64,000 bases of DNA from a virus. The DNA lies in IMG/VR virus record IMGVR_UViG_3300033145_000529, positions 32,001 to 96,000 of that record; one strand, 5' to 3'. The notes under the pieces were generated by a model, which searched no databases, was not told the DNA's origin, and saw nothing but the letters and a program-made list of their open reading frames with translations. The position numbers and the translations under genes were made by a program. Positions 25,255-47,946 of the stretch are shown in pieces; within the stretch, counting starts at the first letter, position 1, and each line of letters begins with the position of its first letter.

Positions 25255-25869
25255 ATGGGAGTAGAAATTAGATTAAGAGGTACAGCAATTGGTTGTATAG
25301 CACAAGAAAGCATTAAAGCAGGACTTGCTGTTCAACTTGTTCCCGCAACAAATGCCCCACGTATTTTGGCTGGTAGTCCCGACCCTGACCCACGATTGCA
25401 AGATGGGATTTATAACACGTTGCAGGGAGCACAAAAACCTACAGGTGCGGGAGAGCTTGCGGCTCATTATGTAGCAGCGTTTCGTGTTTATAATGAGAAA
25501 CCACCGCTATATGAGACTCTTCCAGTGTTGGATGTTGGTGGTTCTACTGTACCTTATACAATGAGAGAATTTGTAGAAGGTGAAGAGAACCTACCTGCTG
25601 AGGATATTGACCTAAGAATGGTAGTTCCGAGATTAAAAGAAGATGCAACAATCCCTTCAGGTGCGTTGATGTTGGCTTATGATGACGGTATCTATACCGT
25701 AACAAGCGGATGCTTCGTTGCTGGTGCAACTTATGCTGTTGGTCAAAAACTTAAGGCGGGAGTTGGTGGTGTTTGGACAGAGACAGCTTTGGATGCCGAT
25801 TCGGTTGCTGTTGTTTTTGAAAGAAATAGTACCAAGAATACACTAACAATTAAGACTGAAAGGAACTAA
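25255..25869 (+). CDS. capsid decoration/cement protein
   Basis: Beta-rich 204 aa protein between scaffold and MCP. Confidence 0.6.
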   Translation: MGVEIRLRGTAIGCIAQESIKAGLAVQLVPATNAPRILAGSPDPDPRLQDGIYNTLQGAQKPTGAGELAAHYVAAFRVYNEKPPLYETLPVLDVGGSTVPYTMREFVEGEENLPAEDIDLRMVVPRLKEDATIPSGALMLAYDDGIYTVTSGCFVAGATYAVGQKLKAGVGGVWTETALDADSVAVVFERNSTKNTLTIKTERN

Positions 25870-25894
25870 AATTAGTGTACTAGACTAAAATATT

Positions 25895-25917
25895 GGGGGA
25901 GGTTTATTTCCTCCCCC
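25895..25917 (+). other. GC-rich stem-loop upstream of MCP
   Basis: GGGGGAGG-TTTATTT-CCTCCCCC; no U-tract. Confidence 0.7.
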
Positions 25918-25932
25918 TGAATAGGTGAAAAA

Positions 25933-26865
25933 ATGGACGAACAAAAGTTTAAAGAAGCTATGGCTCAAATAGCAAAAACTGATAAGAGAGCACTGGCTGA
26001 ACTTATTGTCGAATATGTTGACCCTAAGCACATTACTGCGGACATCGTAGGTATGTTCTTGAACACAAGATCATTAAATCCTGGTGATGCTTTGGTAAAG
26101 AAAGTGCGTAGAGGCATCGAAGTTCGTCAGTTAGTTCCTGGTCAGGATACGCTTGCTAGCCAAATCACAGTGAAAGAAGTTGTGACTTACAATTTGGATA
26201 CAGCTTACGCAGAAGTTGCCCACAATGAGTGGGAGGTAGAGTCAGGTGAAATTGGCACTGTTGACGAGATAAGACGTGAAATGATGGCTAAATTGTCAGA
26301 CTTTTATGTTGTTAAGGTTATGAATGCGTTATATACGCTGGCTACACTTGATGCTGCTAGTGGTGTCGGTGCTACAAACTTCTGGTATTTGACAAGTCTT
26401 ACTAGAAGTGCGTTGGAAGATGCCATTGATAGTATAGCGGATGTAGCTGGAAATGTAAGGGCTGTGGTTGGCAGAAGACCTACCTTAGCTCCTATTACAA
26501 AGTTTGCTGGATATAGGGTTGGTGTGGGAGCCACCGAAGCGGCTGGTTACCCCGTACCTGTTCCAAGCACTTTGGAGGAGATTAAGAGAACTGGTTGGTT
26601 TGGTATGTACTACGGCGCAAATTTTATCAGCTTAGAGCAAGTCTACGATAACCCATATGATAGAAATGGTTTAATCCAAGATGACTTAATTGTTGTTATT
26701 GGTGATAATTGTGGTGAGTTTATTACTTATGGAGACGTAAGAGAAGACCAGTGGACCGATATGGTTACTGCTCCCCCAACTTGGCACATTAGAATTTATC
26801 AGCAATTCGGTCTCCTATTTGACCGTATGGAAAATGTGGGCATCATAAGAACTGATAAAAGTTAA
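25933..26865 (+). CDS. major capsid protein (HK97-like)
   Basis: 310 aa after scaffold/decoration genes; AGGTGA RBS; flanked by hairpins. Confidence 0.8.
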   Translation: MDEQKFKEAMAQIAKTDKRALAELIVEYVDPKHITADIVGMFLNTRSLNPGDALVKKVRRGIEVRQLVPGQDTLASQITVKEVVTYNLDTAYAEVAHNEWEVESGEIGTVDEIRREMMAKLSDFYVVKVMNALYTLATLDAASGVGATNFWYLTSLTRSALEDAIDSIADVAGNVRAVVGRRPTLAPITKFAGYRVGVGATEAAGYPVPVPSTLEEIKRTGWFGMYYGANFISLEQVYDNPYDRNGLIQDDLIVVIGDNCGEFITYGDVREDQWTDMVTAPPTWHIRIYQQFGLLFDRMENVGIIRTDKS

Positions 26866-26866
26866 A

Positions 26867-26893
26867 TAGTGGGGGGCTAAACCCCCCCTACTA
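26867..26893 (+). terminator. stem-loop after MCP (terminator or stabiliser)
   Basis: TAGTGGGGGG-CTAAA-CCCCCCCTACTA; lacks a U-tract. Confidence 0.55.
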
Positions 26894-26952
26894 AGAACTG
26901 GATGGAAGAGAGGTTCAGAAATTCAGTATAAAAAGCATAAAGGAGATATAGA

Positions 26953-27453: not shown

Positions 27454-27507
27454 GTAAACATCCCCGCTAATAAGGTTGTGTTAATCTTTCCCATTGGAGT
27501 AGAGTAA

Positions 27508-27996: not shown

Positions 27997-28127
27997 ACTT
28001 GTTTAGAGTATTAAGTGAATGTTCTCAATACTAAGTTGTTGGATTAACTATTTGATTATGGTATCGAGTACTGACTCTGACACCATTTATTATAAAGATT
28101 AAATTGTATGATAAAGGAGAGGAAATT

Positions 28128-28841: not shown

Positions 28842-28845
28842 TGAA

Positions 28846-29015
28846 ATGGGTAAAGTAACACTTATTTGTCAATATTGTGGTAAGAAAAAGACTCTTTATG
28901 ATACTCCAAATATAAAACTAAAGAATTTATGACGAACCACAGCTTAGAATTACTGTTTAGAAAAGATTTGAATAAAATAAGGAGAGGGTTGGATTATGAA
29001 TGGAAACAAGATTAA
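28846..29015 (+). pseudogene. collapsed Zn-finger/endonuclease remnant
   Basis: MGKVTLICQYCGK start; frameshifted C-terminus KTKEF..LELLFRKDL. Confidence 0.4.
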
Positions 29016-30306
29016 GTTGCTTTGGATTGGTGATAGCCCTGCTGTATCAACTGGATTCGGTCGTGTGTCGCAGGGAGTTTTAGAGGGATTATTTCAAAGT
29101 GGAAGATATGATATATCGGTTCTTGGTATTAACCATCCGATTGGTGACCCCCACCGTTATGAAGGTATATTTAGAGTTTACCCCGCCAGAGCGAGGGGGA
29201 ACATTTATGGGTTTAACAGAGTTAAAGAGATTATCACAAAAGAGAAACCTGACCTAATCATAATTAATAATGATTTATGGATAGTGTCGGAGTACGCTAA
29301 GGAAGTTCCTGAAAATAATAGGATTATTACTTATTCACCAGTGGATGCCTTACCTGTTCAGAAAGAGTGGATAGAAGTTCTGGAGAGGGTGAACGCTAGA
29401 GTTGCAACTTATACGGAGTTTGCTAAAGATGGTATACAAGTTGTAAGAGATATTCCTGTAGATGTTATTGGTCATGCTGTAGATACTGATGAATTCTATC
29501 CAATAGAGGATGCTAGAAAGTTTATGGCAAGCATGCCACCAGATGCTTTTATTGTACAGAACATAAATCGAAATCAACCAAGGAAGAGATTAGATTTGTT
29601 CTTGAAGTCAATGCAGGTGTGGTTAGGTCGTTTACCGAAGAGTGATAGAGAAAATATTAGTTTTTATTATCACGGTACTTTAAGAGATGTCGGTTGGAAC
29701 TTGGTTCAACTAGCTCAGAGATGGGGAGTTGATGATAGGTTTTTAATAACTGACCAGACGCACATTAGTCCAGCACAAGGTGTTTCTCTCTCAATGTTAT
29801 GTAAGATATATAATTGTGCTGATGTTCATGTTATGACCTCAATGGGAGAAGGCTTTGGATTGAGCCCATTTGAGAGTGCGGCTTGTGGAGTTGCTCAAGT
29901 TGTTCCGTCCCATTCAGCTTGTAAGGAGTTATGGGAAGGCAGGACACCATTAATTAACATTGACCGTTGGGAAGTCCTTACTGGTGGTGTTAATACCGAA
30001 GGCGGAGTGATTGATGTTGAACATTTAGTGAGTATCTTAGATGACTTGTATCATAATAGAGAGAAAACTAAGGAGTATGGAAGGGCAGCCTACAATTACG
30101 TTCAATGTGAGAAGTTCACTTGGGAGTATATCGCTAGGCAATTTGATGGAATGATTCAGGAAATTATGAAAGCTGGTGACTTGTCATTGTCTAAAAAGTT
30201 TTCTACAGAAGAGCAAAAGCTCATTGAAACCCCCGCATTAGAAGGCAAGGAAGCCACTGTAGCGGGAGAAAAAGAGAAAAAAGATGGTGACGTTTCCAGT
30301 AACTAA
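28996..30306 (+). CDS. glycosyltransferase family 4 (GT-B), paralog of 22396
   Basis: LWIGDS..TGFG, NRNQPRKRLDL, GEGFGLSPFESAACGV. Confidence 0.92.
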   Translation: MNGNKIKLLWIGDSPAVSTGFGRVSQGVLEGLFQSGRYDISVLGINHPIGDPHRYEGIFRVYPARARGNIYGFNRVKEIITKEKPDLIIINNDLWIVSEYAKEVPENNRIITYSPVDALPVQKEWIEVLERVNARVATYTEFAKDGIQVVRDIPVDVIGHAVDTDEFYPIEDARKFMASMPPDAFIVQNINRNQPRKRLDLFLKSMQVWLGRLPKSDRENISFYYHGTLRDVGWNLVQLAQRWGVDDRFLITDQTHISPAQGVSLSMLCKIYNCADVHVMTSMGEGFGLSPFESAACGVAQVVPSHSACKELWEGRTPLINIDRWEVLTGGVNTEGGVIDVEHLVSILDDLYHNREKTKEYGRAAYNYVQCEKFTWEYIARQFDGMIQEIMKAGDLSLSKKFSTEEQKLIETPALEGKEATVAGEKEKKDGDVSSN

Positions 30307-30733
30307 ATCAACCAAAGATGCGATTAGGCAAGCAATCGGTCAAACGGTTATATTTGTGATTCGTGGTGACCCCACACCCTGTCTCGTATGTAGTGGGTTA
30401 AACCATTATGACGAGGTAAATGAGGTTAGTCTTAACCCGTACTGTACAACTTGTTCTGGTCAATATTGGTTGACTGTTGATACTCTTTCTGGTATTATCT
30501 CCCATGTCAGGTGGAGAACTCAAGACCAACCCGATATGGGGGTAGGTGGGAAAACTTTTGAAGGTGATTGTTTTGTCACCATTGATATAAATGCTATCTC
30601 AGCTTCTAATATTGTCAAAATAAAAGAAGTAAGAGTGGACTCAAGGAAACTACAAGTATATAGGGTTATACAAAGAGGTGTTCCTATAAGAGATAGGGTA
30701 CGCTTTGTGTGTAGAGAATTTGGTAAGGAATAG
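30284..30733 (+). CDS. head closure/stopper protein with Zn ribbon
   Basis: CLVC..CTTC; position in neck module. Confidence 0.6.
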   Translation: MVTFPVTKSTKDAIRQAIGQTVIFVIRGDPTPCLVCSGLNHYDEVNEVSLNPYCTTCSGQYWLTVDTLSGIISHVRWRTQDQPDMGVGGKTFEGDCFVTIDINAISASNIVKIKEVRVDSRKLQVYRVIQRGVPIRDRVRFVCREFGKE

Positions 30734-30744
30734 AAGGGGAGGTA

Positions 30745-30969
30745 ATGATGGACAAATTTGAAGGGTTGACAGAACTGGAAATCGTAAAGCTTATTAATAA
30801 ACGTAAGAAAAGATATTGTGCAATAGCATTAAATGACCTTGAAGAAGAAATACAGGAAGAGGAGTTATTTAAGAAAGTAAGGAAAATTCTTCTCGATAAT
30901 ATGAATAGCTTTACGAGGAGCATTTTTACGGTGGTTGGAGTTAATGTAGAAGGGATTGAGGATGATTAG
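30745..30969 (+). CDS. hypothetical protein
   Basis: GGAGG RBS; ORF track. Confidence 0.75.
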   Translation: MMDKFEGLTELEIVKLINKRKKRYCAIALNDLEEEIQEEELFKKVRKILLDNMNSFTRSIFTVVGVNVEGIEDD

Positions 30970-30972
30970 TAA

Positions 30973-32972: not shown

Positions 32973-34169
32973 ATGACAAAAAGAATAGCGGTCCCATATA
33001 AAGATGTAATGCTTAGAATAGTAGGACCTAAAGCTGATTTCTATGCCCACCGTGTTCAGCGATTAGATTTTCCTACAACATTACCTAATACTACAATTAA
33101 TGAGTTGGGCAATGACCAGCATGCAGGGATTATAACAGATATTCCAGAAGTTACTGCTACTTTCCAAGCATTTGATGTTTCACATAAGATTTATTCTATT
33201 TTATGTGGTGTAGACCCCGATGCTTTTGGAGATGCGGGGAAAGATGTTAGTAACCTTGGTTACATTGATTTGATTGGTTATGTTAGACAAGCTGATGTTG
33301 CTGAGATGCTAAAATGTATTCACGTAAAATATATGAGAATTACTGACTTTACCTTTACTTACACAGTTGATGGTGAGAGTACGGAGGAGTACAGTTGTGC
33401 TGGTAGTGAAAAGAGATATTTTGCTAATGATGTTGTAGTAGAATCTGGTAGTTTAGTTGGTGGAGTAGCAACTCTTACTCTTACACCAAGGCAACTAAAA
33501 AATAGTGATTATTTGTTAAGTTTCATTGTGGATGGTGATTGGAAGAATGAAGCGGCATCTGTTGGTGTTCAGTTAGATGATGAATACATTGTAGATGGTT
33601 TAAGCGTGACACTTAGCGGTGGAGCGACTGAGGATTGGTTAGCTGTTTTTCATACATTAAGTGGAACTTTAGCTTTTAATAGAATCTCTGATGCCACTGT
33701 TCCTGCGGCTATACGTGGTAAGAATATTCCTGTTGTAATTGCTGCTGAGAATATGCATAGAGTACAGAGTGTGACAATTAGGGGTACGTTCCCCAACACT
33801 AAAGTTGTGGAAATGGGCAATACTTCAGTTGTTGGTTACATTGTAGACCCACCTGACATTAGTGGAGATATTACGGTTCTTGACACAGATAGTGAAATTG
33901 TTGCTCTATTGACAACTGGTACAATAACTGATGCTGATGGTTATGGGGAATATGGCGTAGACGAGTATGAAGAGAGAACACTGGCGTTGACAGTTCAGTT
34001 GAAAGACCCTTCTGATAATACTACAATCCAGAAGACAGTGAAGATTCCTTATATGAGAATCACTTCAGATGGAACAGCCTCAAATGTGGGTGGTCAGTTG
34101 ACGCAGACATTCGCATTCATGTCTAACGATGCACAATGTATTGTATATTCTGGTGCAGTTCCAGCATAA
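32973..34169 (+). CDS. major tail tube protein
   Basis: RVQ..NELGN and RVQ..EMGN duplicated tube-like domains; followed by chaperones and TMP. Confidence 0.75.
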   Translation: MTKRIAVPYKDVMLRIVGPKADFYAHRVQRLDFPTTLPNTTINELGNDQHAGIITDIPEVTATFQAFDVSHKIYSILCGVDPDAFGDAGKDVSNLGYIDLIGYVRQADVAEMLKCIHVKYMRITDFTFTYTVDGESTEEYSCAGSEKRYFANDVVVESGSLVGGVATLTLTPRQLKNSDYLLSFIVDGDWKNEAASVGVQLDDEYIVDGLSVTLSGGATEDWLAVFHTLSGTLAFNRISDATVPAAIRGKNIPVVIAAENMHRVQSVTIRGTFPNTKVVEMGNTSVVGYIVDPPDISGDITVLDTDSEIVALLTTGTITDADGYGEYGVDEYEERTLALTVQLKDPSDNTTIQKTVKIPYMRITSDGTASNVGGQLTQTFAFMSNDAQCIVYSGAVPA

Positions 34170-35037: not shown

Positions 35038-35321
35038 GCAGGGACAATGTGTTTGCTAGTTGGTGGCATATTGTCCAAAAATCAGGGATACCTTTATCTG
35101 ATGAGTTTAAATCTATTATAGATGTACCATATACCTTTACACATCTAATAAGGAAGAGAATGCAGATAGATAGTTGGATGGAGTTACCAAAAGATAAACG
35201 ACCACCAAAAGAAATTTGGGATAAACCTAATGAACTTGAAGAGTGGTTTAATAGGGTTTTTGACAGTGAAAAACAAACAGAATTTAATGTTCCAATTGAT
35301 GAGAATGAGGTAGAAAGATAG
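35028..35321 (+). CDS. tail assembly chaperone C-terminal extension via -1 ribosomal frameshift
   Basis: Heptamer AAAAAAC at 35028-35034; -1 frame reads LSRDNVFASWW.. directly into ORF 35049..35321. Confidence 0.8.
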   Translation, partial: KKLSRDNVFASWWHIVQKSGIPLSDEFKSIIDVPYTFTHLIRKRMQIDSWMELPKDKRPPKEIWDKPNELEEWFNRVFDSEKQTEFNVPIDENEVER

Positions 35322-38300
35322 TGGTAGAATCACAATTTATACCAGGGCAACAAGGTGGAAGTCCTATGAGTCATACGTTGTTTATGAAACAGTATGAAGA
35401 ACAAAAGAGAAAACTAATTGAAAATACTGCGTTGTTTCAAAAATATGGCTATTCTCAAGCAGAGTCAGCTAAAATGTCTCATCAGATGGTTGATGCCAAC
35501 AAAAGAAACATTGCTAGTTTTAATGGGATGACAGAAAGCATGGGTAAGGCTGTTCTAAAAGTTACTTTGTGGATGGCAGCTATTAGTGTAGTTCTTGGTG
35601 CGATGAAAAAGGTGGGGGAGGTTATAGAACTGTGGAAAGATTTAGAGGTAACTTTAGAAAGGATTGGTATTACAACTGGTGAAATTGGTCTTGGTCTTTA
35701 CCAATACTTTGAGAAGACTGCTGATGTTGCCATTGCTATGGGTATGCCTATCCAAAATACTCTTAGGGGTATGGATTTGGCACTTAGAGCAACAGCTTCA
35801 TTAGAAAACCAAGTGGTGCGAACAGCTACAGCTACGATGATGTTGAGAGATGCATCTATTCTTGGTAATGTTGCTGGTATGAATTTTGACCAAGCAATTG
35901 ATATTTTAGTAGGTTCTTTGCGTCAGACTGGTATGGAGCTTGACCAAGGAATTATTCTTTTAGATAAGTGGGTAGCGGTAGCTAGAAATGCGGCTGTATC
36001 AGTTAATGATTTATCACAAGGTTTTGCTATTATGTCTAGTGCTGCTGCTTCTGCTGGTGTAAATATTGACCAAGTTAATGGTATTATTGCGGCATTGAGT
36101 GAGTCTGTAACATTAGGACCTATTGAGGTTGGTAATGCTATTAGAGCGTTAATGGCAACTATTTATAATCCAGGGTCAATTAAAATTATGTCACGGTATG
36201 GTGTTGCTGTTAAAGATGCTACAGGGGAATTGAGGTCATTTTGGGACATTATGACTCAGTTATCATCAATGGTAGTAACGGGTGCTTTGGATGAAAGTCA
36301 AATAATGGAAATTGCTAAAGCTGCTGGTGCTGGTCAGAGACGTTATGCTCAATTTATTGCTCTTTTACAGAACTGGACAAATGCGATGAGGGCTGCTGAT
36401 ATTTCTGCAAACGCACAGAATGAGGCTTTAAAGGCTAATCAAAGAATCGTTGATACTCTTACTAATGCTTATGACCAATTTACGGCGGCACAAAATAAGT
36501 TCTGGTATGCTTTTGGTGAAAAGAGTGGGATTATAGGTGATATGACACAAGCGTTTCAAGGATTTGCCAGTCTTTTTAACAATATTTCTGGTTGGAATGA
36601 AGGTCTATTTAAGACTTTGAAAATTTTGATGGAAATTGCTGCTGCTCTAGCTATTATTAAAGTTTCCATGATCGGTTGGGCTAAGCTTCAGGGTATGGGT
36701 ATTGGTGCAGGAATGGGTGGATTTTTTGGAATGGGTAAATATCCAATGGCTGCTGGTGCTGGAGCACCAGGGTACTATGACACTACTCAAGGTGCTAGAG
36801 GGGCACCTCTGTATGTGAGGGGAACTCCCCCATCGGGAGGGCAGGCTTTTGGTAGGCGTATGATTACACCTAGTCGTGGTGTAGCGGGAATTGCAGGTGC
36901 GGGTATGGTAGGTGGTCTTATTGCTGGTGAGATAACACAATCTACTTTAGGTGCGTGGGGAGGAGGTATAGGAGCTGGTATTGGTATGGCTTTAGGTGGT
37001 CCTGTAGGTGCTGCTGCGGGGGGAGCGATTGGTGCTGTTATTGGTAAAGCTATTGAGGATTCAGCAAGGACTGTTGAAGACATATTAAAAGGAGCTATGG
37101 AAGATTTTCTTGAGTCAATGCCTGCCGAGCTTAGAAGTGCTCTTACTCCAGGTATTCGTGATATATCACTTGCTGGTTTTGCGGCTGAACCTATATCAGA
37201 AGAAGAATTACCATATGCAGAGGCGTTAGAGAAGGCTAGAGAAACGATAGAACTTCAAGAAAGAGCTATTAAAACAGGTGGTACGGCTTGGGAAAAGTTT
37301 TCAGTAAATTTTACTGCTATTAGAGCGGCTATGGAAGCTTTAAGTAGTGAAGGATTTGCTGCTTCTTGGGAAATAATGCAGAAAGAGACTGGAACGTGGG
37401 TACGTGACGAAGCGGGAGAGTGGATTACGTTAACTGAACTTCATACAAGACAGTTAGATGCTCTACTACCAAAGGAACAGCAGATTAAGGATATACGGGA
37501 CGCTCTACTCAATAGTGATAAAGAAGCATTAAGTTTAGAGGATGAATTAGCAGTAAGGGCTAAGGATATTAGAGTTGAAGAAAACACTCAGTTAGTGGTT
37601 AACCGTGAGATTAACAAGTTAAAGGAAAAATCGTTAGATATAGGTACTAAGGAATTTTTACTTCAAAGGAGTCAAATTGAGTCTTCTCAAATAGCTTATT
37701 CAAATCTTCAAGCACAAATTGAAAGGTTTGCCCCCCAAGAGTTGCCTAGATTTAGACAATTAGTTCCAGATTTTGGGGCATTTATGCAATTTGAACCTGG
37801 TGCATACCAACCGTTACAGGAAGTATTAGCTACTCAAATTAGTATAACTAAGCAACAAGAAGAGGGAGTGCTTGCTATGAAGCAATTAGAGAGATATTGG
37901 GTAGCTCTTCCTGGTTTTAGTGCTACTTATACTACCAATCTTGAGGATATTTTAGCTCAAGAAAATTATTGGTCTGCTTTGTCAAAAGGCTTATTGGCAG
38001 ATGACATAGAAGCTATTGGACACTTGGGTAGAATTAATGAGTTTCTCCAGGAAAAGGGGGTACTCACTAAAGACTTAACTGCGGATGAGATGACCAGCAT
38101 ATCATTATTAGTAGCAGAGGGTGTGGAACACGCTAAAATTGTAGATCTATTGCAAAGAGAATATGACATAAATAACGATATGCTAAAAGATACTATGGAG
38201 TATATGCCACGTTATAAAACACCAGGACAGTTTGCGTTCTTACAAGGAATAGATGCGGGAAAGATTCAATCACTACTAGATAAATATAACACAATGTTTA

Positions 38301-38917
38301 GTGATTTTATTGATAAGGAAACTTCTGACCTTAAAACTTATTATGCTTTTGCACGTACTGAGGAAGGAGTTACTACTGGACAAGCAGAAACATTTGTCGC
38401 ATATGGAGAAGTTTGGAACGCAATGCTTCAAGAATTGCAAGGTATTGAAAAAAACACTAGCAAAATGCTAGAGGCTGAATACAATATACCAGGTTGGTAT
38501 CAAACACCTAATAGGTACATGGCTTTGAGGCAAACTGGTGGAGCGGGGGGATTTGGTCCAGCATCAGAAGGGATGTGGGGGGATTGGTTGGAGTTTGTAA
38601 GCAGTAGGAGTATGCAATCTGGTGGCATTGTCCGTGAAACTGGACCTTATTTCCTGCATAAAAGAGAGGTTGTTGTGTCAGGTGAGACACTGACAAGTAC
38701 TAATGTTCTTCTAGGTAATTCTTATAGGGTGCTTCTAATATCACAGCAATACTTATCAAATATTAACCTTGGGATTCTTGGGGTGAGGCAGGAGATTCAA
38801 CAATTGAGGCAGCAGTTGGCATCAACCAAAACAGCAGAAGTGGGTTCTTCTGATTTTGATAGAGTCACAAAAGCCAATTATGTTGGTATAAGTTCTTTAG
38901 GAGTAAATAGGAAATAA
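35321..38917 (+). CDS. tape measure protein (TP901-type core)
   Basis: 1198 aa, Ala/Gly-rich helical; VGNAIRA, AGQRRY, Gly-rich hydrophobic segment. Confidence 0.92.
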   Translation: MVESQFIPGQQGGSPMSHTLFMKQYEEQKRKLIENTALFQKYGYSQAESAKMSHQMVDANKRNIASFNGMTESMGKAVLKVTLWMAAISVVLGAMKKVGEVIELWKDLEVTLERIGITTGEIGLGLYQYFEKTADVAIAMGMPIQNTLRGMDLALRATASLENQVVRTATATMMLRDASILGNVAGMNFDQAIDILVGSLRQTGMELDQGIILLDKWVAVARNAAVSVNDLSQGFAIMSSAAASAGVNIDQVNGIIAALSESVTLGPIEVGNAIRALMATIYNPGSIKIMSRYGVAVKDATGELRSFWDIMTQLSSMVVTGALDESQIMEIAKAAGAGQRRYAQFIALLQNWTNAMRAADISANAQNEALKANQRIVDTLTNAYDQFTAAQNKFWYAFGEKSGIIGDMTQAFQGFASLFNNISGWNEGLFKTLKILMEIAAALAIIKVSMIGWAKLQGMGIGAGMGGFFGMGKYPMAAGAGAPGYYDTTQGARGAPLYVRGTPPSGGQAFGRRMITPSRGVAGIAGAGMVGGLIAGEITQSTLGAWGGGIGAGIGMALGGPVGAAAGGAIGAVIGKAIEDSARTVEDILKGAMEDFLESMPAELRSALTPGIRDISLAGFAAEPISEEELPYAEALEKARETIELQERAIKTGGTAWEKFSVNFTAIRAAMEALSSEGFAASWEIMQKETGTWVRDEAGEWITLTELHTRQLDALLPKEQQIKDIRDALLNSDKEALSLEDELAVRAKDIRVEENTQLVVNREINKLKEKSLDIGTKEFLLQRSQIESSQIAYSNLQAQIERFAPQELPRFRQLVPDFGAFMQFEPGAYQPLQEVLATQISITKQQEEGVLAMKQLERYWVALPGFSATYTTNLEDILAQENYWSALSKGLLADDIEAIGHLGRINEFLQEKGVLTKDLTADEMTSISLLVAEGVEHAKIVDLLQREYDINNDMLKDTMEYMPRYKTPGQFAFLQGIDAGKIQSLLDKYNTMFSDFIDKETSDLKTYYAFARTEEGVTTGQAETFVAYGEVWNAMLQELQGIEKNTSKMLEAEYNIPGWYQTPNRYMALRQTGGAGGFGPASEGMWGDWLEFVSSRSMQSGGIVRETGPYFLHKREVVVSGETLTSTNVLLGNSYRVLLISQQYLSNINLGILGVRQEIQQLRQQLASTKTAEVGSSDFDRVTKANYVGISSLGVNRK

Positions 38918-39326: not shown

Positions 39327-39328
39327 TT

Positions 39329-40939
39329 ATGGGAATAGCTGAAGAATATGCGAAAAGGGTAAAGATACCCATTGCTAAGGTTAAAGTTACTAAATTTTTT
39401 GAGGGAGAGTCCCCTGGAGTGGAAGCCATTGGTGATAATTATTTTCCCGAAGTTATAAGTTGTGATATCACTTATGGTTTTGACCAAGCCAGTACAACCT
39501 GTACTTTGGAATTAAAAACTCCCCTTGATTCTGAAGGTAACTATGTCCGTTTTGTCCCAATGAATAGAGTTGAGGTGGAGCAGGGGTGGAATGTACTTTC
39601 AACTTACAGAATTACATTTTTTGGGTTTATTGATAAAATAGAGTATGCTAGTCCTCCCCGAACAGTTAGATTAGAATGTCGTGATATCCTAAAATTAGCA
39701 CAAGATAACTATTATATTTATTCAAATAGAAGAGTTTATTCTGCTGTACCTGACGAGTCTGAACTAGACGCTGACGGTAATCCTATGGGTGGTCAAGCTG
39801 TTGAGGATAGACAAGCTCAGAGAATTATTACGGATTTCCTGACAGATAGTGGTATCCCAGAGTCTAGACTTCACCTCGACTTTGTAGAATATCCTGCTTC
39901 TGGTGCGATTGTCATTGGTAACAATGCTACGGCTGTTTTCGCATATGAGTCTGCAATGGATGCTTGCACACGCATCACTGACCTTATTGGTTACCGTATA
40001 TGGGCTGATAAAGGTGGGCATGTTCAGTGTAAAGAAATAAGACCTGTCGGAGCCTCAACATCATCTCAAACATATCGCAGTCAAGAAGAGACATATGCAG
40101 GAGATGAGGTATGGACAATTACTCAAGTTGGTAATTTATTAGGTATTAGTGCAAGCAGAGATGATGACCTGAGAAATTGGGTTACAGTATATGGATATGA
40201 TGGAATAAGTACTACAGTTGCAGGTCCATCTGATTATATTCCTACCCCACCAACATATAGAAGGACAGAGATCAGGTCATACTTGCTAGATACACCAGAA
40301 TTACTTATTGCTGTAGCTACTAGAGTTTATAATGATTTGAACAGATTAAGATATACTGCTAGAGCTACTATTGAGGGAGACCCAAGACTTGAAATTGGAC
40401 AGACTATTAGCTTATATGACCCCCACGCAATGACGGACCTAATTGAATATTTCTTGTATGATTATACTAGCTCACTTACAGCAGGTATATGGACTATGGA
40501 ATTGAGTCTTGTTGGTGGTACTGGTGCGGGGACTGAAGGTTCACCCCCAGTTGCTAATATTGCTCCTGTAGCAATGTTTGTATATAGGGTTGAACATGAG
40601 TCGCTTGCTGACGATAGTAATATGTATGATGTTACTGTTGATGCGACACCTTCGTATGACCCAAATGGTCCATTAGAAGAATTGCTCTATACTTGGGTTT
40701 GTTCTGGTTATTCTGTAGCGAGCGGAATTACACATACTTACAATGTGATAACGGATACCCTTTCTATTTATGTTACATTGACGGTGCAAGACCAAGGAAC
40801 ACCACCGCTTAGTAGTTCTATTACTCTTGCAATAACATCTATTGAGGTAGAACAGAAGATGGTATTTGTAGCTTCGGGGAAGTATGTTTATACTTCAGAT
40901 AATGGTGGAGTAAGTTGGTTAAAACAAGAATTATGGTAA
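39329..40939 (+). CDS. tail tip/baseplate hub protein with PKD-like domain and terminal Asp-box
   Basis: LECRDILK, GDPRLEIG, DATPSYDPNG..YTW, SDNGGVSW. Confidence 0.7.
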   Translation: MGIAEEYAKRVKIPIAKVKVTKFFEGESPGVEAIGDNYFPEVISCDITYGFDQASTTCTLELKTPLDSEGNYVRFVPMNRVEVEQGWNVLSTYRITFFGFIDKIEYASPPRTVRLECRDILKLAQDNYYIYSNRRVYSAVPDESELDADGNPMGGQAVEDRQAQRIITDFLTDSGIPESRLHLDFVEYPASGAIVIGNNATAVFAYESAMDACTRITDLIGYRIWADKGGHVQCKEIRPVGASTSSQTYRSQEETYAGDEVWTITQVGNLLGISASRDDDLRNWVTVYGYDGISTTVAGPSDYIPTPPTYRRTEIRSYLLDTPELLIAVATRVYNDLNRLRYTARATIEGDPRLEIGQTISLYDPHAMTDLIEYFLYDYTSSLTAGIWTMELSLVGGTGAGTEGSPPVANIAPVAMFVYRVEHESLADDSNMYDVTVDATPSYDPNGPLEELLYTWVCSGYSVASGITHTYNVITDTLSIYVTLTVQDQGTPPLSSSITLAITSIEVEQKMVFVASGKYVYTSDNGGVSWLKQELW

Positions 40940-40946: not shown

Positions 40947-42179
40947 ATGACAACTAATATTTGGTGGGTAGACCCACCTAGAAAGTATTGGGCTGGTGGC
41001 TACATGAGCTATAAGTATCATGATGCCGTAGTGGATACAGTCTATATCCACAATAACCAATATTACTCTGGATTCCAATGCGTAAAGCAATGGCAATTTC
41101 CGCTAGACTTAATTTCTGACCATTACGAATGTTGGGCATACCACTTCTTTACAAAATTTAAAGTTCCAATAGCTACGAGCGGTGTATTCCAAAGTGCCGA
41201 ACTCTATTTAATGCTTGGTGGTGCTGAGATGGTCTTGGATGACCCCACTGTTTATAACGTTATGGACATTGACGTATACTACAAAAGTGTCTATGACACT
41301 GATACCTTTCCTTGGCAGGTTCTAGATGAAGGAGATTATGCGGCTCCGACATGGACTCAAAATCCTAATTCTATAGAAAATTTCTATAGTATGTGGGGTC
41401 TATTTGTAGTAGGAGGACCATATTGGGTAGACCCTGTTACTGTGACGGTTGGAGTTCAAAAAGCCATAGATGAGGGGTGGGAGTGGATTGCTTTTAGACT
41501 TTCTCCAAGTTATGTTGCCCCACCTGATTATAATTGGGATGTTAGACCAACGACATTCGACCAACGGGCTGCGTTAGCGTTTTATGGTCCAGTTAACCCA
41601 TATTGGACAACCTCACCGCCAGGATTCACTAAAAAGGGTGTACCTGAGCCTGCTTGCTCACCTGTCCCCTGGTTGAAAATTACTTATTCTGGTGGGGCAG
41701 AGCAGTGGTATCCAGGTGAAGATGAGACTGCTAATCCTGTCTCTGGAGAAGGTTCTACTGGTAATGCTATAGTAAATTGTGTAGCCGCAGACCCTAAAGC
41801 TAAAATGGCAATCGCTGGAACTGAAACGGGTAATTTGTGGCATTGTTGGAGTGGTGGAGGTGTGTGGAATAAGGTTCTTGATGGGGTTGAACCCATAACG
41901 GCTGTGTGGATGGATCATATAAGGAATTTCCAAGATTATCCGTATGGCGAAATTGCTTGGTATGGAGCGGGGAGCGGAACAGGAAGTGGAAATTTATATA
42001 AGAGTGAGAATTCTCTTGGTAATTTTACTCTGAAGGGAATTTTCCCAACAAAAATTGTTGAAATCATGTCCAGTAATCGGGATTCTGATAAAGTTGTTGT
42101 GGGTGTCTTGGACGGTGTTTGGACATCTGTTGATGGTGGTGAAACTTGGATAGAAGGGTTAGAATCCCCTACAACATAA
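40947..42179 (+). CDS. tail tip protein with C-terminal Asp-box blades
   Basis: SVDGGETW; aromatic-rich N-domain. Confidence 0.6.
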   Translation: MTTNIWWVDPPRKYWAGGYMSYKYHDAVVDTVYIHNNQYYSGFQCVKQWQFPLDLISDHYECWAYHFFTKFKVPIATSGVFQSAELYLMLGGAEMVLDDPTVYNVMDIDVYYKSVYDTDTFPWQVLDEGDYAAPTWTQNPNSIENFYSMWGLFVVGGPYWVDPVTVTVGVQKAIDEGWEWIAFRLSPSYVAPPDYNWDVRPTTFDQRAALAFYGPVNPYWTTSPPGFTKKGVPEPACSPVPWLKITYSGGAEQWYPGEDETANPVSGEGSTGNAIVNCVAADPKAKMAIAGTETGNLWHCWSGGGVWNKVLDGVEPITAVWMDHIRNFQDYPYGEIAWYGAGSGTGSGNLYKSENSLGNFTLKGIFPTKIVEIMSSNRDSDKVVVGVLDGVWTSVDGGETWIEGLESPTT

Positions 42180-42192
42180 TTGAGGTATAGTA

Positions 42193-43713
42193 ATGGCACG
42201 TGGTGATATTATAAATTCTAGTATAGAAACCTTGGAATTTGATGAAGACCAGGGAGTTTATTGTAAGATAGTACAAGTTTCTGGCGGTGTCTGTGCTATA
42301 GTATATGCGAATACCGATAATCTTAAAATGAAGACATATCTTATAGACAGCCTAGGTAATATTGGTGATGAGATAGACTCGGTGGTTATTGGAGTTGGGT
42401 CTTATCCCTATATCCATCATATTACTGATACCAATGTTTTTGCCATTGCATACGTAGGTCCTTCGGCAGACAGGTTTGTTAAACTTCTTACTATTAATAT
42501 CAGTAATGCGGGTATAATAGGTTCGGAAATTAGTTCATTGGACATTTACGACCCATCCCCTGATGTAGCACGGTACCTTAAGCTTGTTCATGTTAGTGGA
42601 ACTACATATGCTATTACTTGGTACATTGCTGGAACTCCTCCTGATTACCCTGGTTGGCTAGCAACAGTTAATATTGATAATGACGGTACAAATCTTTCTG
42701 TATTGGACAGCTATAATTTCTCTGCTAATGCCGTTTCACCTGATATTATGCGTGCTTATGGTAATGTGTTTATTATCACCCATAATGGCGGACTTGCAAT
42801 TACATTACCAATTGCTGCTAATGGTACAATTGGTTCAGTACTAGATAGTCATGATTTTCTGGTTGCTACAGGGTATCCATCACTAATTCACATCGCTGGT
42901 AACGTCTTTGCTACTGCTAGTTATGATGGGTTACCTGGTTGGATTAGGACATTTTCAGTTATTAGTGGTATTATAACTGAAATTGACACATATGAATTTG
43001 CTGGTGATGCTAGTGCTATAAGAGGTCTTTACTTAACTTCTGATGGTACTAATGTTATCATTGCTGTTGTATTCACAACTGCCCCTTCACCTCCTTTGGG
43101 GAAGATATACACCATTTACATAGGTATTGATGGAATTATCGGGGGACAGATAGATAGTGATCAGTGGAAGAGCACTGTTTCGACTCCTTATATAATTAAT
43201 GTAACTGGTAATATTTATGCTTTAGTTTGCGATGGATATGGTCCTGTGGGTGGTGGAGGATGGTTAGTAACACTAAGTATTGATACAATTTGGTATCGTG
43301 CGTTTAAAGGTTTATTTAATCGTGGTGATGAGATTCAAGCAATTTTTGAAGGTGGGGTAGGTTATAGAAGCCCCGATTTTGGGGTTACTTGGTATGAGAT
43401 GGAAGATGAACCAATAACAGGCAGAGATGTCGGATTTGATGCTTCAAATGAACAAGAGTCATTCATTGGGGCTAGTGGGGTTCTTTACAAGTTTGATTAT
43501 GCGGAGGGAGAGATTTTTTACTATGCTCAAGGTGCAGCAATAAGTGGAGTTGTATCATGTATAGATGTAGACCCAGTAACTCCTGTTGCAGTTGTTGGGA
43601 CAAGTGAGAAATTATATAAAACAGTAGACTTCGGTGCAACAGTTCATGAATGGAAGAGCATTCCAGTTGCGGGCGTTGCAATAGGCGGAAATTTTATAGT
43701 ACCGAGTGGATAA
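42193..43713 (+). CDS. tail protein with ~50-aa beta repeats and Asp-boxes
   Basis: Repeated GxIGxEIDS..P.I.H..GNVFA units; SPDFGVTW. Confidence 0.65.
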   Translation: MARGDIINSSIETLEFDEDQGVYCKIVQVSGGVCAIVYANTDNLKMKTYLIDSLGNIGDEIDSVVIGVGSYPYIHHITDTNVFAIAYVGPSADRFVKLLTINISNAGIIGSEISSLDIYDPSPDVARYLKLVHVSGTTYAITWYIAGTPPDYPGWLATVNIDNDGTNLSVLDSYNFSANAVSPDIMRAYGNVFIITHNGGLAITLPIAANGTIGSVLDSHDFLVATGYPSLIHIAGNVFATASYDGLPGWIRTFSVISGIITEIDTYEFAGDASAIRGLYLTSDGTNVIIAVVFTTAPSPPLGKIYTIYIGIDGIIGGQIDSDQWKSTVSTPYIINVTGNIYALVCDGYGPVGGGGWLVTLSIDTIWYRAFKGLFNRGDEIQAIFEGGVGYRSPDFGVTWYEMEDEPITGRDVGFDASNEQESFIGASGVLYKFDYAEGEIFYYAQGAAISGVVSCIDVDPVTPVAVVGTSEKLYKTVDFGATVHEWKSIPVAGVAIGGNFIVPSG

Positions 43714-45673
43714 TATGATAACTAAGAGAGAAGCTAAAGAAATAGTAGATTGGGTTGTTCGGGAGATAACGAGGCGTAACTTTTCCTACGTTACTGATGG
43801 TAGATTAGATTTGAGTAAATCTCCTGTTGGGGCAATTTCTGGGACTCAAACTTCTGGTGGTCCTATTGCTGATGGTGCTATTTGGAATCGTCATGTTCAC
43901 CCCAACGCTGATATTAGGGGAACAAAAGTAAGAATAGCGACAACCGCAGAACGTGGTACTGTTCAGTTAGGAACTGATGGTGTAGCACTAGTCCCTACAA
44001 TGTCTGGTCTTCTTGCTACGGCTTCTGGTCTTGGTGCAAGTCTAATTGGTATTGAGGATAGTCCTGATGCATTTGTGTCAGAGGATGTAGAAGCTGTTCT
44101 ACATGAGTTGTATGATAAAATCGTTGCTATTGCCTTCCTTGATTTGACCGATACTCCAAGTAATTATACAAACAGATTCCCACAAGTTCCTACTATTACC
44201 GAGGCTGAGGCTGGTTTAGAATGGAGACCAGTGGATTATTATGATAGTGATAGCGTTGTACCTTTCCTTGGTTATGCCCTCAGCTTTGATGGGGATGATG
44301 ATTATGTAAATTGCGGGCAGGACAACAGCTTAAATCTAGTAGGTGACCTCAGTATTGAGATATGGATAAACCCTGATGCTACCAATATTAGTGGTTTGTC
44401 TTCAGTTTATAAATTTGCGGGTGGTTATAAAGGATTTAGGTTTGGAGTAAAGACTGCCGAAACAAACTTTGCCATCGGCAATTCAGGGGGTGGATATGAG
44501 GGATTAAATTGGAAACATGCTAATCTCTCTGATACTGAGGCTTATGTAGTAATTACAAAGGAAGGAACTACGGTTAAGTGTTATATAAATAACGTAGCAC
44601 AAGCTGACAAAACTCTCTCTGATGCTGTGATAAATGACCACTCTACAGTAAACTTATTACTTGGTCATAATCCATTGAATGCCAAGTACTTAAAAGGTAA
44701 GATAGCCCAAGTCCGCATATCAAATGTAGCTCGAACTCAAGCTGAAATAACTGCTAATTATAATGGCGGAGCAGGTCGCAAATTCCCACTGGATGCCAAT
44801 ACAGTAGCTCTGTGGCAGATAGATGAAGGTGCTGGTGCTACTGTCTATGATGAGACAGATAATGATAATGACGGGACTATTGATGGAGCTACTTGGACAG
44901 ATAGTATAATATATTCTAGATTTGATACTGATTATTCAGGTGCGGTTGCTGTAAGGTGTGGTGAAGAAGTAGTTGATGCTGAATCTGCTACAATGAATAA
45001 CATTCTTGATGGTGGTGAAGCTAATGGTTACTACGATATTTATGGCAGACCAAAAACAAGAATTGGTAGTAAGGAACAAATAGCAAAAGGAAATTATACA
45101 GAGTTTGAAGCGGATGGAACTCATCGTTTTGCTGGTGAGTCTACTGTGTGGGAAGATTTACGGACTCCTACTAATATGCTCAAGACCCACAGCACCAAAC
45201 CTCCTGTTTGGACTGATTATAAAGGTGGTCAAGTGTTAGCTTTTGAAGACCAAGCAGTAAATTATCAGACAGTTTACTTCACGTGGCAAATGCCACACGC
45301 ATATAAATTGGGAACAACACTTTATCCTCACGTTCACATTGTACCAGAAGACGATACTGCTGGAGATGTTTATTGGGAATTTACTTACAGTATAGCAGAA
45401 AAGGATGGCATAGTTCCAAATCCAACTACTGTAAATACTGTTCAAGCAATGCCTGCCATAGCAGACCAGCATAAGTTTCACTACATTGCTACAATAAGTG
45501 GAAGTGAAATGCCCGCTAGTGGAGATGATGTATCAACAATGTTATTGTGTAGTTTAACACGTAGGTCTGATGACGCATTGGATACTTTTAATGGTAAGAG
45601 TGTTTATTTATTAGAGGTAGATTTACATTATGAAATAGATACTGTTGGTAGTAGGCAAGAACTTATTAAATAG
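43706..45673 (+). CDS. tail fibre/receptor-binding protein with LamG-like domain
   Basis: ALSFDGDDDYV, GKIAQVRISNVART, VALWQIDEGAG. Confidence 0.75.
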   Translation: MDNMITKREAKEIVDWVVREITRRNFSYVTDGRLDLSKSPVGAISGTQTSGGPIADGAIWNRHVHPNADIRGTKVRIATTAERGTVQLGTDGVALVPTMSGLLATASGLGASLIGIEDSPDAFVSEDVEAVLHELYDKIVAIAFLDLTDTPSNYTNRFPQVPTITEAEAGLEWRPVDYYDSDSVVPFLGYALSFDGDDDYVNCGQDNSLNLVGDLSIEIWINPDATNISGLSSVYKFAGGYKGFRFGVKTAETNFAIGNSGGGYEGLNWKHANLSDTEAYVVITKEGTTVKCYINNVAQADKTLSDAVINDHSTVNLLLGHNPLNAKYLKGKIAQVRISNVARTQAEITANYNGGAGRKFPLDANTVALWQIDEGAGATVYDETDNDNDGTIDGATWTDSIIYSRFDTDYSGAVAVRCGEEVVDAESATMNNILDGGEANGYYDIYGRPKTRIGSKEQIAKGNYTEFEADGTHRFAGESTVWEDLRTPTNMLKTHSTKPPVWTDYKGGQVLAFEDQAVNYQTVYFTWQMPHAYKLGTTLYPHVHIVPEDDTAGDVYWEFTYSIAEKDGIVPNPTTVNTVQAMPAIADQHKFHYIATISGSEMPASGDDVSTMLLCSLTRRSDDALDTFNGKSVYLLEVDLHYEIDTVGSRQELIK

Positions 45674-45683
45674 GTGAAATAAA

Positions 45684-46664
45684 ATGGCAACAAAAATATA
45701 TTTAAGAAGAGGAACACGCACCGAAATTCTAGGTATTGTTCCTGAAAGTGGTGAACCAGTATGGGCAACGGACACCAAAGCATTGTATATTGGTGATGAT
45801 GCAACGTCTGGTGGTGTTTTTGTCGGTGGCACTGGTGCTCAAGTACTGTCTTTAAATGGATTATTTGATATTATAACAATATCTGGTGCAGGTCTTGTTA
45901 CTGTAACTGAAGATGGTCAAGTGATAGTGGTCTCTGGTGAAGATATACTTGACGTGGACAGCTTGAATGGTTTAACTGGTGCGGTTACAATTTCGGGATT
46001 AAATGGTATAACTGTATTTGAAGATGGGCAAATCATAGTGGTTTCAGGTCGTGATGAATTTCTTGAGCTTATAGATACACCATCAAGCTATGCAGGTCAA
46101 GGTGGAAAGTTTGCTAGGGTAAATGTTGGTGAGGATGCTCTAGAATTTGCACCTACTGCATTTGTTGGTTTGACAGATACTCCTGCTAATTTTACTGGTT
46201 CGTCTAAGAAACTTGTTGCCGTAAATGCTGGTGAATCCGCCCTTGAGTTTATTAAAAGAATAAATATTGAAGAGACCTTAACAAGCGACCACGATTGGGC
46301 AGGATTAGTGTGTAGTGGTATTGCTGGTGAAACCTTGGCATTTGGTGAATTAGTTTATTATGCAAGTGATAGTAAGTGGAAGAAAACAATTGCAACAGTA
46401 GAAGGGCAAACAGATGGACATTTGTCATTGGTAGTTGCGTCAGGTGTGGAGGATGACAGTATTACTTTATTACTTCTAGGTTACATAAGAGATGATAGTT
46501 GGAGTTGGGTGGTGGCTAGTGGACTTTTTGTGCATACTGTAAGTGGGGAAATGTCCCAAGTTGCACCGAGTAATGCTGGTGAGTTTGTTCGTAGAGTGGG
46601 TTATGCTCATTCTTCTGATGCTATTTGGTTTAATCCTGATGGTACTGTAATAGAGAGGAGTTAG
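45684..46664 (+). CDS. tail fibre protein with Mtd_N-like N-terminus and internal repeats
   Basis: IYLRRGT..GEP.W.TDT..LYIGD; two SLNGL..TISG..EDGQ.IVVSG units; two F..L.DTP..ALEF units. Confidence 0.75.
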   Translation: MATKIYLRRGTRTEILGIVPESGEPVWATDTKALYIGDDATSGGVFVGGTGAQVLSLNGLFDIITISGAGLVTVTEDGQVIVVSGEDILDVDSLNGLTGAVTISGLNGITVFEDGQIIVVSGRDEFLELIDTPSSYAGQGGKFARVNVGEDALEFAPTAFVGLTDTPANFTGSSKKLVAVNAGESALEFIKRINIEETLTSDHDWAGLVCSGIAGETLAFGELVYYASDSKWKKTIATVEGQTDGHLSLVVASGVEDDSITLLLLGYIRDDSWSWVVASGLFVHTVSGEMSQVAPSNAGEFVRRVGYAHSSDAIWFNPDGTVIERS

Positions 46665-46668
46665 GCAA

Positions 46669-47946
46669 ATGTCTGAGCAAGTAATAATTGGAGGAGACCC
46701 AGAGAGGTATATTGCTGGTGCTGCTGCTAGGTATCACTGCCTTATGGGTGGAGGTTATTGGAAGACTGCTAGTATAGCAATTCCTATGCCTACAGCAGGG
46801 ACTCTAAAGAAGCTAAGAGTTCAGCTAACTGGTGCTCCTGGTGATGGTAAGAGCTATCAGATATATCTCAGTAAAGGTGGTGTAGAACAAGCATTATCGG
46901 TAACTATCTCAGGTGCTTCGGATACTGCAGGTTCAGATGATAGTAATGAAATATCTGTAGTTGCTGGAGATTTGGTAGAACTGGTAAGTATTCCTACAAA
47001 CACTCCTACTGATAGAGCTTGCACTTTCAGCTTAGAGTTTATACCTACCGTTGATAACGAGTCCATACACTTTGCATATATTGATAATGAGAAGAACAGT
47101 GATGGAGATGCCTATCACCAGGTTGTCTCTGGTTACGGCTCTGAGGTAGGTGCTGTTCTTGACAAAGCCTATGCAGTAGTTCCAACTGGCGGAACACTAA
47201 AGCTACTATATGCTATTGCCTTTACTGCCCCTGGTGCAGGAAACTCCAGAACCTTCACTGTGTACAAGGATGGTGGAGATACAGGTATAGTAGCTGCTAT
47301 TGCTGATACAGATACTAAGGTTCAGGATACCACTCACTCCCAGGCTGTTTCTGCTGGAGACCTGTTCTGTGTAAAGCTAACTAATGCAGGAGGTCCTGCT
47401 AGTTCAAAGTATGGCTGGTCATTTGTCTTCCTAGCTAGTACTGCTGGTGAGTTTCCTATCTTTAACTGTGGTGTTTATGCTCCTGCTATAGATGCTGTAA
47501 CCTACCAGAATCCCTGTGGTAGCTACTTTGGTGAGGCTTGGGATGCTACTGAGGCAAATGTAAAGCAGATTACTAGAACTATGGCTATCACTAAGATGTA
47601 TGTGAATCTAACTACTGCTCCTGGTGCTGATTCTAAGTCATATGCATTTATGCTAAGGGAGGATGAGGGAGATACAGATGTTACTGTAACTATTAGTACT
47701 ACAGCTACTACAGGTAACGATACAGCCCACACTCATGCTTTTACTGATAATCACTATGTAGCTGTAAAGTGCACTCCTGCTAATGCTCCTGCTACTACTT
47801 ACCCTAGGATAAGCCTATGTGGTTATATTTCTGATGCTCCTAGTGGTCCTTCTATAGCAAGCCTTGATGGAATTGCATCAGCATTAATTAATAAAGTAGC
47901 TGGTATTCCTTGGGCAAGCATTGCCAAAATAAATGGAGTAGGATAG
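46669..47946 (+). CDS. tail fibre/receptor-binding protein with three repeated beta domains
   Basis: Three APG..S..F/I units; C-terminal WASIAKING module. Confidence 0.7.
   Translation: MSEQVIIGGDPERYIAGAAARYHCLMGGGYWKTASIAIPMPTAGTLKKLRVQLTGAPGDGKSYQIYLSKGGVEQALSVTISGASDTAGSDDSNEISVVAGDLVELVSIPTNTPTDRACTFSLEFIPTVDNESIHFAYIDNEKNSDGDAYHQVVSGYGSEVGAVLDKAYAVVPTGGTLKLLYAIAFTAPGAGNSRTFTVYKDGGDTGIVAAIADTDTKVQDTTHSQAVSAGDLFCVKLTNAGGPASSKYGWSFVFLASTAGEFPIFNCGVYAPAIDAVTYQNPCGSYFGEAWDATEANVKQITRTMAITKMYVNLTTAPGADSKSYAFMLREDEGDTDVTVTISTTATTGNDTAHTHAFTDNHYVAVKCTPANAPATTYPRISLCGYISDAPSGPSIASLDGIASALINKVAGIPWASIAKINGVG

Follow-up and report, generated by a model that had tools for sequence, protein, structure and literature searches.

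A few mycobacteriophages are so far known to glycosylate their virions with enzymes of their own, which changes how antibodies recognise them, and we know of no acceptor motif for phage-encoded virion glycosylation. The mycobacteriophages Che8, Corndog and Myrna have reportedly been studied in this respect by Freeman et al. (Cell Host Microbe, 2023). According to PMC12619734, the subunits of the capsid and of the tail tube carry the glycans at their C-termini; the mycobacteriophage study is also cited in PMC12582341. Here we describe a window of 64,000 nucleotides from an uncultured phage (bases 32001–96000 of the 148,197-bp virus record IMGVR_UViG_3300033145_000529), in which glycosyltransferase genes sit with the structural genes on one strand and the tail proteins are rich in the dipeptide Ser-Gly (SG). 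A preliminary description had proposed that SG is the acceptor of an initiating phage glycosyltransferase, most plausibly one of family 4 (GT4). In the tail proteins of this phage and its relatives, an SG motif indeed occurs far above chance and far above what is seen in other phages. We give an even chance to the reading that this excess marks a structural element, a strand-end turn that was inherited and amplified together with the tail modules.

The starting point was a set of hand counts, all of which we reproduced exactly. Observed/expected ratios (O/E) were then obtained from composition-preserving shuffles, a check under which the SG excess persists. All genes in the window lie on the + strand. 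In the fibre protein (326 residues, 45684..46664) there are 10 SG, 1 Gly-Ser (GS) and 29 Ser, with 3.6 SG expected (p ~0.001). The tail proteins at 43706..45673 (655 residues) and 40947..42179 (410 residues) contain 9 SG versus 3.5 expected and 7 versus 2.4, respectively (p ~0.0075 for either). For the probable major tail (tube) protein (398 residues, 32973..34169) the count is 5 versus 1.9 (p ~0.03), and the neck or head-closure-like protein (30284..30733) holds 3 SG in its 149 residues (p ~0.02). Taken alone, neither the tail protein at 42193..43713 (506 residues, ending ...VPSG; 6 versus 4.6) nor the baseplate hub-like protein (536 residues, 39329..40939; 5 versus 3.0, with 5–10 SG in its orthologues) is significant, and there is no enrichment in the tail protein at 46669..47946 (425 residues; 3 versus 3.4). 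The names tube, hub and head closure are labels based solely on gene order. As an internal negative control, the tape measure protein (35321..38917) has 5 SG versus 7.3 expected in 1198 residues, and the non-surface proteins RNR, PolA and TerL have 4 in 680, 4 in 662 and 3 in 535 residues.

When the 19 structural proteins are pooled, SG reaches 63 versus 36.1 expected (z 4.8), while GS shows no enrichment (29 versus 36.3). SG ranks first among all 400 dipeptides in this set, and only 1.3% of shuffles yield any dipeptide as extreme (familywise p ~0.013). Six distal tail proteins lie downstream of the tape measure gene at 35321 and reach to 47946; four distal tail proteins pooled give 32 versus 14.2 (z 5.2). 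In the non-structural proteins SG and GS both occur 65 times, each against ~53.7 expected (1.2-fold). The SG excess is real and stronger than first stated. Two caveats belong to these counts: of the ten fibre SG, four are supplied by an internal tandem repeat, and two of the three SG in the protein at 30284 are zinc-knuckle-like CxxCSG sites. A motif or mutational bias at the DNA level was considered as well and ruled out: SG is encoded by 14 different hexamers (codon pairs) in line with general codon use, and the share of AGY codons is 44% for the serines of SG, equal to that for all Ser. The signal therefore lies in the protein and not in the DNA.

The sequence before SG is also constrained. 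At position -2 Val or Thr is found in 32 of 63 cases, and position -1 is Ile, Ala, Val or Cys. An upstream context of this kind had been noted before, and it is real: the tetrapeptide [VT][AILVC]SG occurs 18 times in eight tail proteins versus 1.3 expected, and the non-structural proteins of the entire genome, 32,794 residues in total, hold 4 copies versus 4.15 expected. The fibre contributes eight copies, four of them from the duplicated repeat, the hub three, the tube two (both TLSG), the proteins at 43706 and 46669 two each and the protein at 42193 one. Collapsing the fibre repeat still leaves ~16 copies versus 1.3 expected over at least six proteins, by which repeat inflation as the sole cause was rejected. 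Throughout the 148-kb genome, 23 of 27 copies fall into the virion block between 27508 and 47946. The original observation is thereby sharpened into a virion-specific tetrapeptide, and an enrichment beyond composition in the presumed targets, as one expects of a sequon, is found for the dipeptide (63 versus 36) as well as for the tetrapeptide (18 versus 1.3).

The tube protein ends in ...IVYSGAVPA, and VYSG at the C-terminus is kept in all eight aligned full-length homologues (32–62% identity). The capsid protein (25933) has neither the motif nor a Ser/Thr-rich tail. Measured against the acceptor placement of the mycobacteriophages, the tube C-terminal SG is conserved and the capsid protein lacks the motif.

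Are these features shared by other phages? Three syntenic relatives in IMG/VR were compared with the window. Their tail proteins show an SG O/E of 2.25–2.60 (z 6.5–8.6) and 13–18 motif copies versus ~1 expected, and SG is never enriched in their tape measures. Even in those tail segments of the relatives that have no BLAST similarity to window proteins (2,784 residues), SG amounts to 36 versus 21.4 (1.7-fold, z 3.4); the tetrapeptide, with 3 versus 1.0, is not significant there. The question whether the excess also occurs in tail proteins of phages without such glycosyltransferases was put forward earlier, and there it is absent. The SG O/E of tail proteins is 1.49 in lambda, 1.22 in HK97, 1.21 in T5, 1.05 in T4 and 0.89 in SPP1, and 1.17 in the GT4-bearing cyanophage S-CBS4. 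Motif counts in these six phages are near expectation, the largest departure being that of S-CBS4 (6 versus 2.7, z ~2). With a baseline so close to expectation, the SG excess is not general to tail proteins. A generic tail-fibre property was rejected accordingly, as T4, T5, SPP1 and HK97 are without excess and lambda has SG at only 1.5-fold and no excess of the motif.

The comparison also reveals which residue precedes the glycine. In [VT]-hydrophobic-x-Gly contexts the clade of the window has Ser in 64 of 124 cases (7-fold), and Asn is outside its eight commonest residues. Among 103 such contexts in five model phages, the position is filled 16 times by Asn, 15 times by Thr, 11 times by Lys and 6 times by Ser. 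The combined excess of Ser and Asn before Gly is similar in the clade (~1.6), lambda (1.5) and HK97 (1.4), which means that the clade uses Ser where others use Asn, and that a polar residue before Gly is common in siphovirus tail proteins. Thr-Gly and Asn-Gly are depleted in the tail proteins of the clade and not in its other proteins; for Asn-Gly the O/E is 0.6–0.8 in clade tails, 1.0 in clade non-structural proteins and 1.0–1.7 in control phage tails. Asp-Gly has an O/E of 1.4 in the tail proteins of the window.

Controls free of glycosyltransferases were sought among loci that share only the fibre N-terminus, several of which turned out to encode glycosyltransferases or to be fragments themselves. 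A renewed scan with the Mtd_N alignment returned the same 10 loci and added none, and a search for GT4-lacking distant relatives starting from one divergent tube-protein homologue found nothing. Two side observations belong here. An Mtd-like tail protein of the GT4-free phage S-CBS1 (L127, 7610–8671) has the opposite bias, with 11 GS versus 2 SG, and fibres starting with Mtd_N in L009 and L011 (about 10004–11392) carry collagen-like GPSGPSG runs and are high in SG for a quite different reason.

The fibre at 45684 is the richest single source of the motif. It is composed of an Mtd_N domain (Pfam; residues 7–38), a shaft of tandem beta-repeats and a C-terminal domain that resembles decoration proteins. 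Among 66 fibre homologues SG is found 661 times versus 259 expected, and GS 204 times. In this family the motif belongs to a tandem shaft repeat of varying copy number, by which fibre SG counts are multiplied. An AlphaFold2 model of the monomer has a mean predicted local distance difference test score (pLDDT) of 72.6, with the N-terminus and residues 205–326 confident and the shaft below 60. The proposed mapping of SG sites onto models could thus be carried through for the confident parts, in which SG pairs lie at strand ends or in strand-adjoining loops, and not for the shaft. Conservation was followed in 36 homologues: Gly is 85–100% conserved at most sites and Ser ~45–85%, so that Gly stands above Ser nearly everywhere. 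Where an SG site varies between orthologues, it is the Ser that gives way, to D, A, E, T, V, G or P, and the Gly that stays.

Foldseek matches residues 205–326 to capsid decoration or cement proteins (E ~1e-3), among them Pam3 8hdt_G, Adjutor 8saj_1, HFTV1, TW1 and the phi29 head-fibre base. Because of this resemblance in the model, the protein at 45684 could be a head fibre or capsid-binding fibre instead of a tail fibre. The HFTV1 cryo-EM paper has nothing on virion glycans.

How can these observations be connected? In the structural reading, Ser-Gly would terminate a short beta-strand in which position -2 is taken by Val or Thr and position -1 by a small hydrophobic residue. The backbone conformation of the Gly would close a tight turn or bulge; before it, Ser would be preferred but replaceable. 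Tandem duplication in the fibre shaft, with repeats of ~18 and ~37 residues, would have multiplied the element, and it would recur in the beta-rich domains of the tube, the hub and the distal tail proteins of the lineage. The motif would thus have come down and multiplied together with the tail modules, and glycosylation of the virion, if there is any, would not need it. From this we infer the geometry of the turn, and that the serines carry no modification. Sequence alone cannot separate a glycan acceptor from an ordinary structural turn.

Several lines from sequence and model are consistent with a turn: Gly outlasts Ser at the variable sites, SG lies at strand ends, and the motif is part of the shaft repeat and of the CxxCSG knuckles. 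To these we add the joint excess of Ser and Asn before Gly, which is on a par with that of lambda and HK97, the weaker enrichment in the non-homologous tail segments of the relatives, the absence of the motif from the helical tape measure and the capsid, and the aquatic phages without the GT4, which still show a motif O/E of 1.1–2.2. Other findings weigh against a purely structural origin. Structure alone leaves the choice of Ser unexplained (64 of 124 contexts in the clade versus 6 of 103 in control phages), and this clade-specific choice is the part for which it offers no account; the same is true of the depletion of Asn-Gly and Thr-Gly, which is confined to tail proteins. The excess extends over at least six proteins without detectable homology and with apparently different folds. 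S-EIVl and G013, two unrelated phages with the same GT4 family, also have motif-rich fibres, which have no BLAST homology to the window, and motif enrichment is higher in GT4-bearing genomes.

This leads to the enzymes. Two genes of the window, 28996..30306 (436 residues, among the neck genes) and its paralogue 22396..23547 (383 residues, followed by the head genes), are CAZy GT4-type retaining GT-B glycosyltransferases of a B736L-like viral clade, an activity predicted from sequence. In Pfam the former matches PF13692 with 32.1 bits (cut-off 27) and PF00534 with 28.0 bits (cut-off 26.4), and the latter both families with 48.6 bits, above the cut-offs. The best solved relative of both is chlorovirus NY-2A B736L (3oy2), aligned at full length in each case (residues 7-384, E 4e-24, for 28996; E 6e-19 for 22396). 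In 28996, E285 and E293 are invariant among 19 homologues (GEGxGLxxxE), fitting the EX7E motif. Each of the three relatives has both GT4s, with 28996 at 72–82% identity, equal to or above most tail proteins. None of these relatives is without GT4, so they offer no clean GT4-free contrast. Directly upstream of 28996 lies a metallophosphoesterase-like gene at 28104 (weak PHROG match), and the trio of 28104, 28996 and 30284 (window positions 28104–30733) is kept in the relatives G008 and G009 despite differing upstream genes.

A sugar-nucleotide/glycan cassette (10341..21704) lies between the portal gene (8809) and the head genes. It encodes RmlA, an RmlC-like enzyme, RmlD, RmlB and five family 2 (GT2)-type glycosyltransferases, further a radical SAM enzyme, a methyltransferase, an oxidoreductase, a GNAT protein and a DegT aminotransferase. 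The relative G008 does not share the cassette upstream of 21865. From gene order, the cassette and the GT4s would be expressed late, together with the structural genes.

With this arrangement a second explanation comes into view, which we hold to be possible but clearly short of an even chance: the [VT]-hydrophobic-Ser-Gly turn might double as an O-glycosylation acceptor. The B736L-like GT4 at 28996, the candidate writer, possibly together with its paralogue 22396, would add the first sugar to Ser in the cytoplasm before or during assembly, and the variable cassette would then supply and add strain-specific sugars. The motif could be turn and acceptor at once, by analogy with autotransporters that are glycosylated on Ser by heptosyltransferases. 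In its favour, Ser stands specifically at the position where other phages have Asn, Thr or Lys, Thr-Gly is depleted, and 23 of the 27 genomic motif copies lie in the virion block. Cassette and GT4s are placed inside the morphogenesis operon, and the GT4s are kept in all relatives while the cassette changes. The closest solved relative is itself a viral GT4, B736L, whose acceptor is unknown (PMC9614988). There is also a precedent, as TibC and AAH modify Ser and not Thr on beta-helix surfaces, with TibA Ser313 in the context ...NSGG... (PMC4358343). On the other side, Ser is conserved less than Gly, the hydrophobic residue at -1 suggests partial burial, the lineage-specific distal domains are weakly enriched, and the capsid is without the motif, unlike the mycobacteriophage glycans on capsid and tube C-termini as given in PMC12619734.

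Whether GT4 and motif travel together was asked on a larger scale, with a divided outcome. The B736L-like GT4 family covers at least 594 loci in IMG/VR viral contigs. In a small and non-random comparison, uncorrected for phylogeny or habitat, the median whole-genome motif O/E is 2.6 in 9 GT4-bearing lineages versus 1.5 in 14 lineages without (one-sided Mann-Whitney p ~0.0007, or 0.0008 leaving out the clade of the window). The top four values (3.1–4.8) all belong to GT4 carriers. GT4 absence was checked over the complete record for five aquatic phages. S-EIVl, the best GT4 match among cultured phages, has 13 motif copies versus 1.7 expected in its large late proteins, and neither its motif-rich fibres nor those of G013 have BLAST homology to the window. 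Two late proteins of S-EIVl (768–2573 of L128; 12041–12832 of L132) are packed with TVSG, VASG and VISG repeats, with 4 and 5 motif copies, respectively. The GT4 of S-EIVl adjoins a primase and not the structural module. The cultured cyanophage S-CBS4 (L016, 7300–16884) shares the portal-GT4-head arrangement of the window: a portal is followed by a GT4, a second glycosyltransferase, a methyltransferase and then protease and capsid. In its tail region, gp46 has 9 SG versus 2.9 expected.

Other carriers do not follow the trend. G011, G012 and most of S-CBS4 have the GT4 but little or no excess, 75 GT4 loci from outside the clade give a pooled SG O/E of 1.10, with many of them showing no excess, and in one large GT4 subfamily the neighbourhoods are depleted in SG. 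The earlier view of SG as GT4 acceptor has gained from the composition test, the controls and the GT4 association, and has lost by the GT4 carriers without excess and the conservation of Gly above Ser.

A third explanation, which we consider improbable, keeps the selection for Ser but not the sugar. Ser could be subject to another modification (phosphorylation, acylation or a radical-SAM-dependent reaction), or favoured as chemically durable in a particle that persists for long outside the cell. Of all dipeptides, Asn-Gly is the one most prone to deamidation, and Asp-Gly is also prone to isomerisation. The depletion of Asn-Gly in clade tails (0.6–0.8), which is seen neither in the non-structural proteins (1.0) nor in control tails (1.0–1.7), would agree with the durability variant, as Ser seems to occupy the place that Asn has elsewhere. 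However, Asp-Gly is enriched (1.4) despite its isomerisation risk, avoidance of Asn would predict neither Ser as the sole replacement nor Val or Thr at -2, and the searches run linked no kinase or acyltransferase to the virion genes. Effectively refuted, finally, is a counting artefact in which one of 400 dipeptides was picked post hoc and inflated by repeats and paralogy: four of ten fibre SG do stem from the duplicated repeat and three of the listed proteins are individually non-significant, but the pooled shuffles with their familywise p of ~0.013, the tetrapeptide count (18 versus 1.3), the replication in three relatives (z 6.5–8.6) and in non-homologous segments (z 3.4) and the many codon pairs that encode SG all speak against it.

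The remaining features of the window complete the picture. Its G+C content is 36–41%, and the gene order begins with TerL at 7217. Pfam and PHROGs searches assigned no family to most of the tail proteins, the exceptions being Mtd_N in 45684 and Laminin_G_3 in 43706, and a megablast of the region against cultured phages gave no nucleotide match. Towards the C-terminus of the protein at 40947–42179 there are Asp-box-like repeats of the SxDGGxTW type (WSGGGVW, SVDGGETW), as in sialidase-type beta-propellers. The protein at 30284–30733 has two CxxCSG knuckles (CLVCSG and CTTCSG) ~20 residues apart, which are kept in a relative; judging by these it is probably a small metal-binding ribbon. The probable tube protein (32973–34169) contains two similar halves, with ELGN..VG..D.P.VT near residues 44 and 280 of the consensus of its family. 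Such halves point to a fused double domain comparable to that of phage T5 pb6, which would imply a trimeric tube ring.

What would follow from either reading? It is conceivable, if doubtful, that the strand-end [VT]-hydrophobic-Ser-Gly is the acceptor of a widespread, virus-specific GT4 family that starts O-glycosylation of tail fibres and tail proteins, with a swappable cassette building a strain-specific glycan coat. Phage-encoded virion glycosylation would then have its first defined sequon, and the B736L-like viral GT4 family, still lacking an acceptor after the structure of B736L was solved, would acquire a function. Metagenome sequence would allow glycosylated phage proteins to be predicted, and for therapeutic phages it would become possible to design glycan coats or to remove them. 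Should the role of the motif be structural only, it would still be a clear signature by which to recognise, in sequence, the tail fibre modules of one group of large aquatic phages, and a warning that an excess of a dipeptide, taken by itself, supports a sequon only weakly.

Each of the known systems matches this locus in part. The triple beta-spiral shaft of adenovirus is built of short repeats whose beta-strand terminates in x-Gly, with x tolerating several polar residues. Its shaft turns share the short repeats and the strand-end x-Gly with the fibre at 45684, whose own shaft has a pLDDT of <60 in the monomer model. A strong preference for Ser is, to our knowledge, not a feature of adenovirus-type shaft repeats. 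The proteoglycan xylosyltransferase of animals, which belongs to another enzyme family and acts in the Golgi, uses Ser-Gly among acidic residues in flexible regions. The parallel drawn to it in the preliminary description is correct in that Gly directly follows the putative acceptor Ser, and it fails on the context, which here is Val or Thr at -2 and Ala, Val, Ile, Leu or Cys at -1, with no acidic cluster; since the proteoglycan context is acidic, that acceptor is unsuitable as a match.

TibC and AAH, which glycosylate TibA and AIDA-I, come nearest in their way of working, and in this alone: a cytoplasmic enzyme adds many sugars, on Ser only, to the turns of a repetitive, beta-structured surface protein (PMC4358343), with one mapped TibA site, Ser313, in ...NSGG.... 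Unlike the GT4s of the window, TibC and AAH are iron-binding, dodecameric heptosyltransferases with ADP-heptose as donor and bacterial adhesins as substrates, and none of the candidate enzymes, which are of GT4 and GT2 type, has a Pfam match to the heptosyltransferase family. Chlorovirus B736L (NY-2A, PDB 3oy2/3oy7; PBCV-1 homologue A546L) is likewise virus-encoded and has a GT-B fold and EX7E-type glutamates, although its sequence similarity to the window GT4s is distant. It binds GDP-mannose, but neither an acceptor nor a role is known for it (PMC9614988), which makes it uninformative on a Ser-Gly acceptor. The mycobacteriophage system shares with the window the phage-encoded glycosyltransferases and virion proteins of the phage itself as presumed target. 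It differs from the window, where the motif is internal, at strand ends, mostly in the distal tail and absent from the capsid, and where the putative glycosylation cassette is much larger, with dTDP-sugar synthesis and seven glycosyltransferases.

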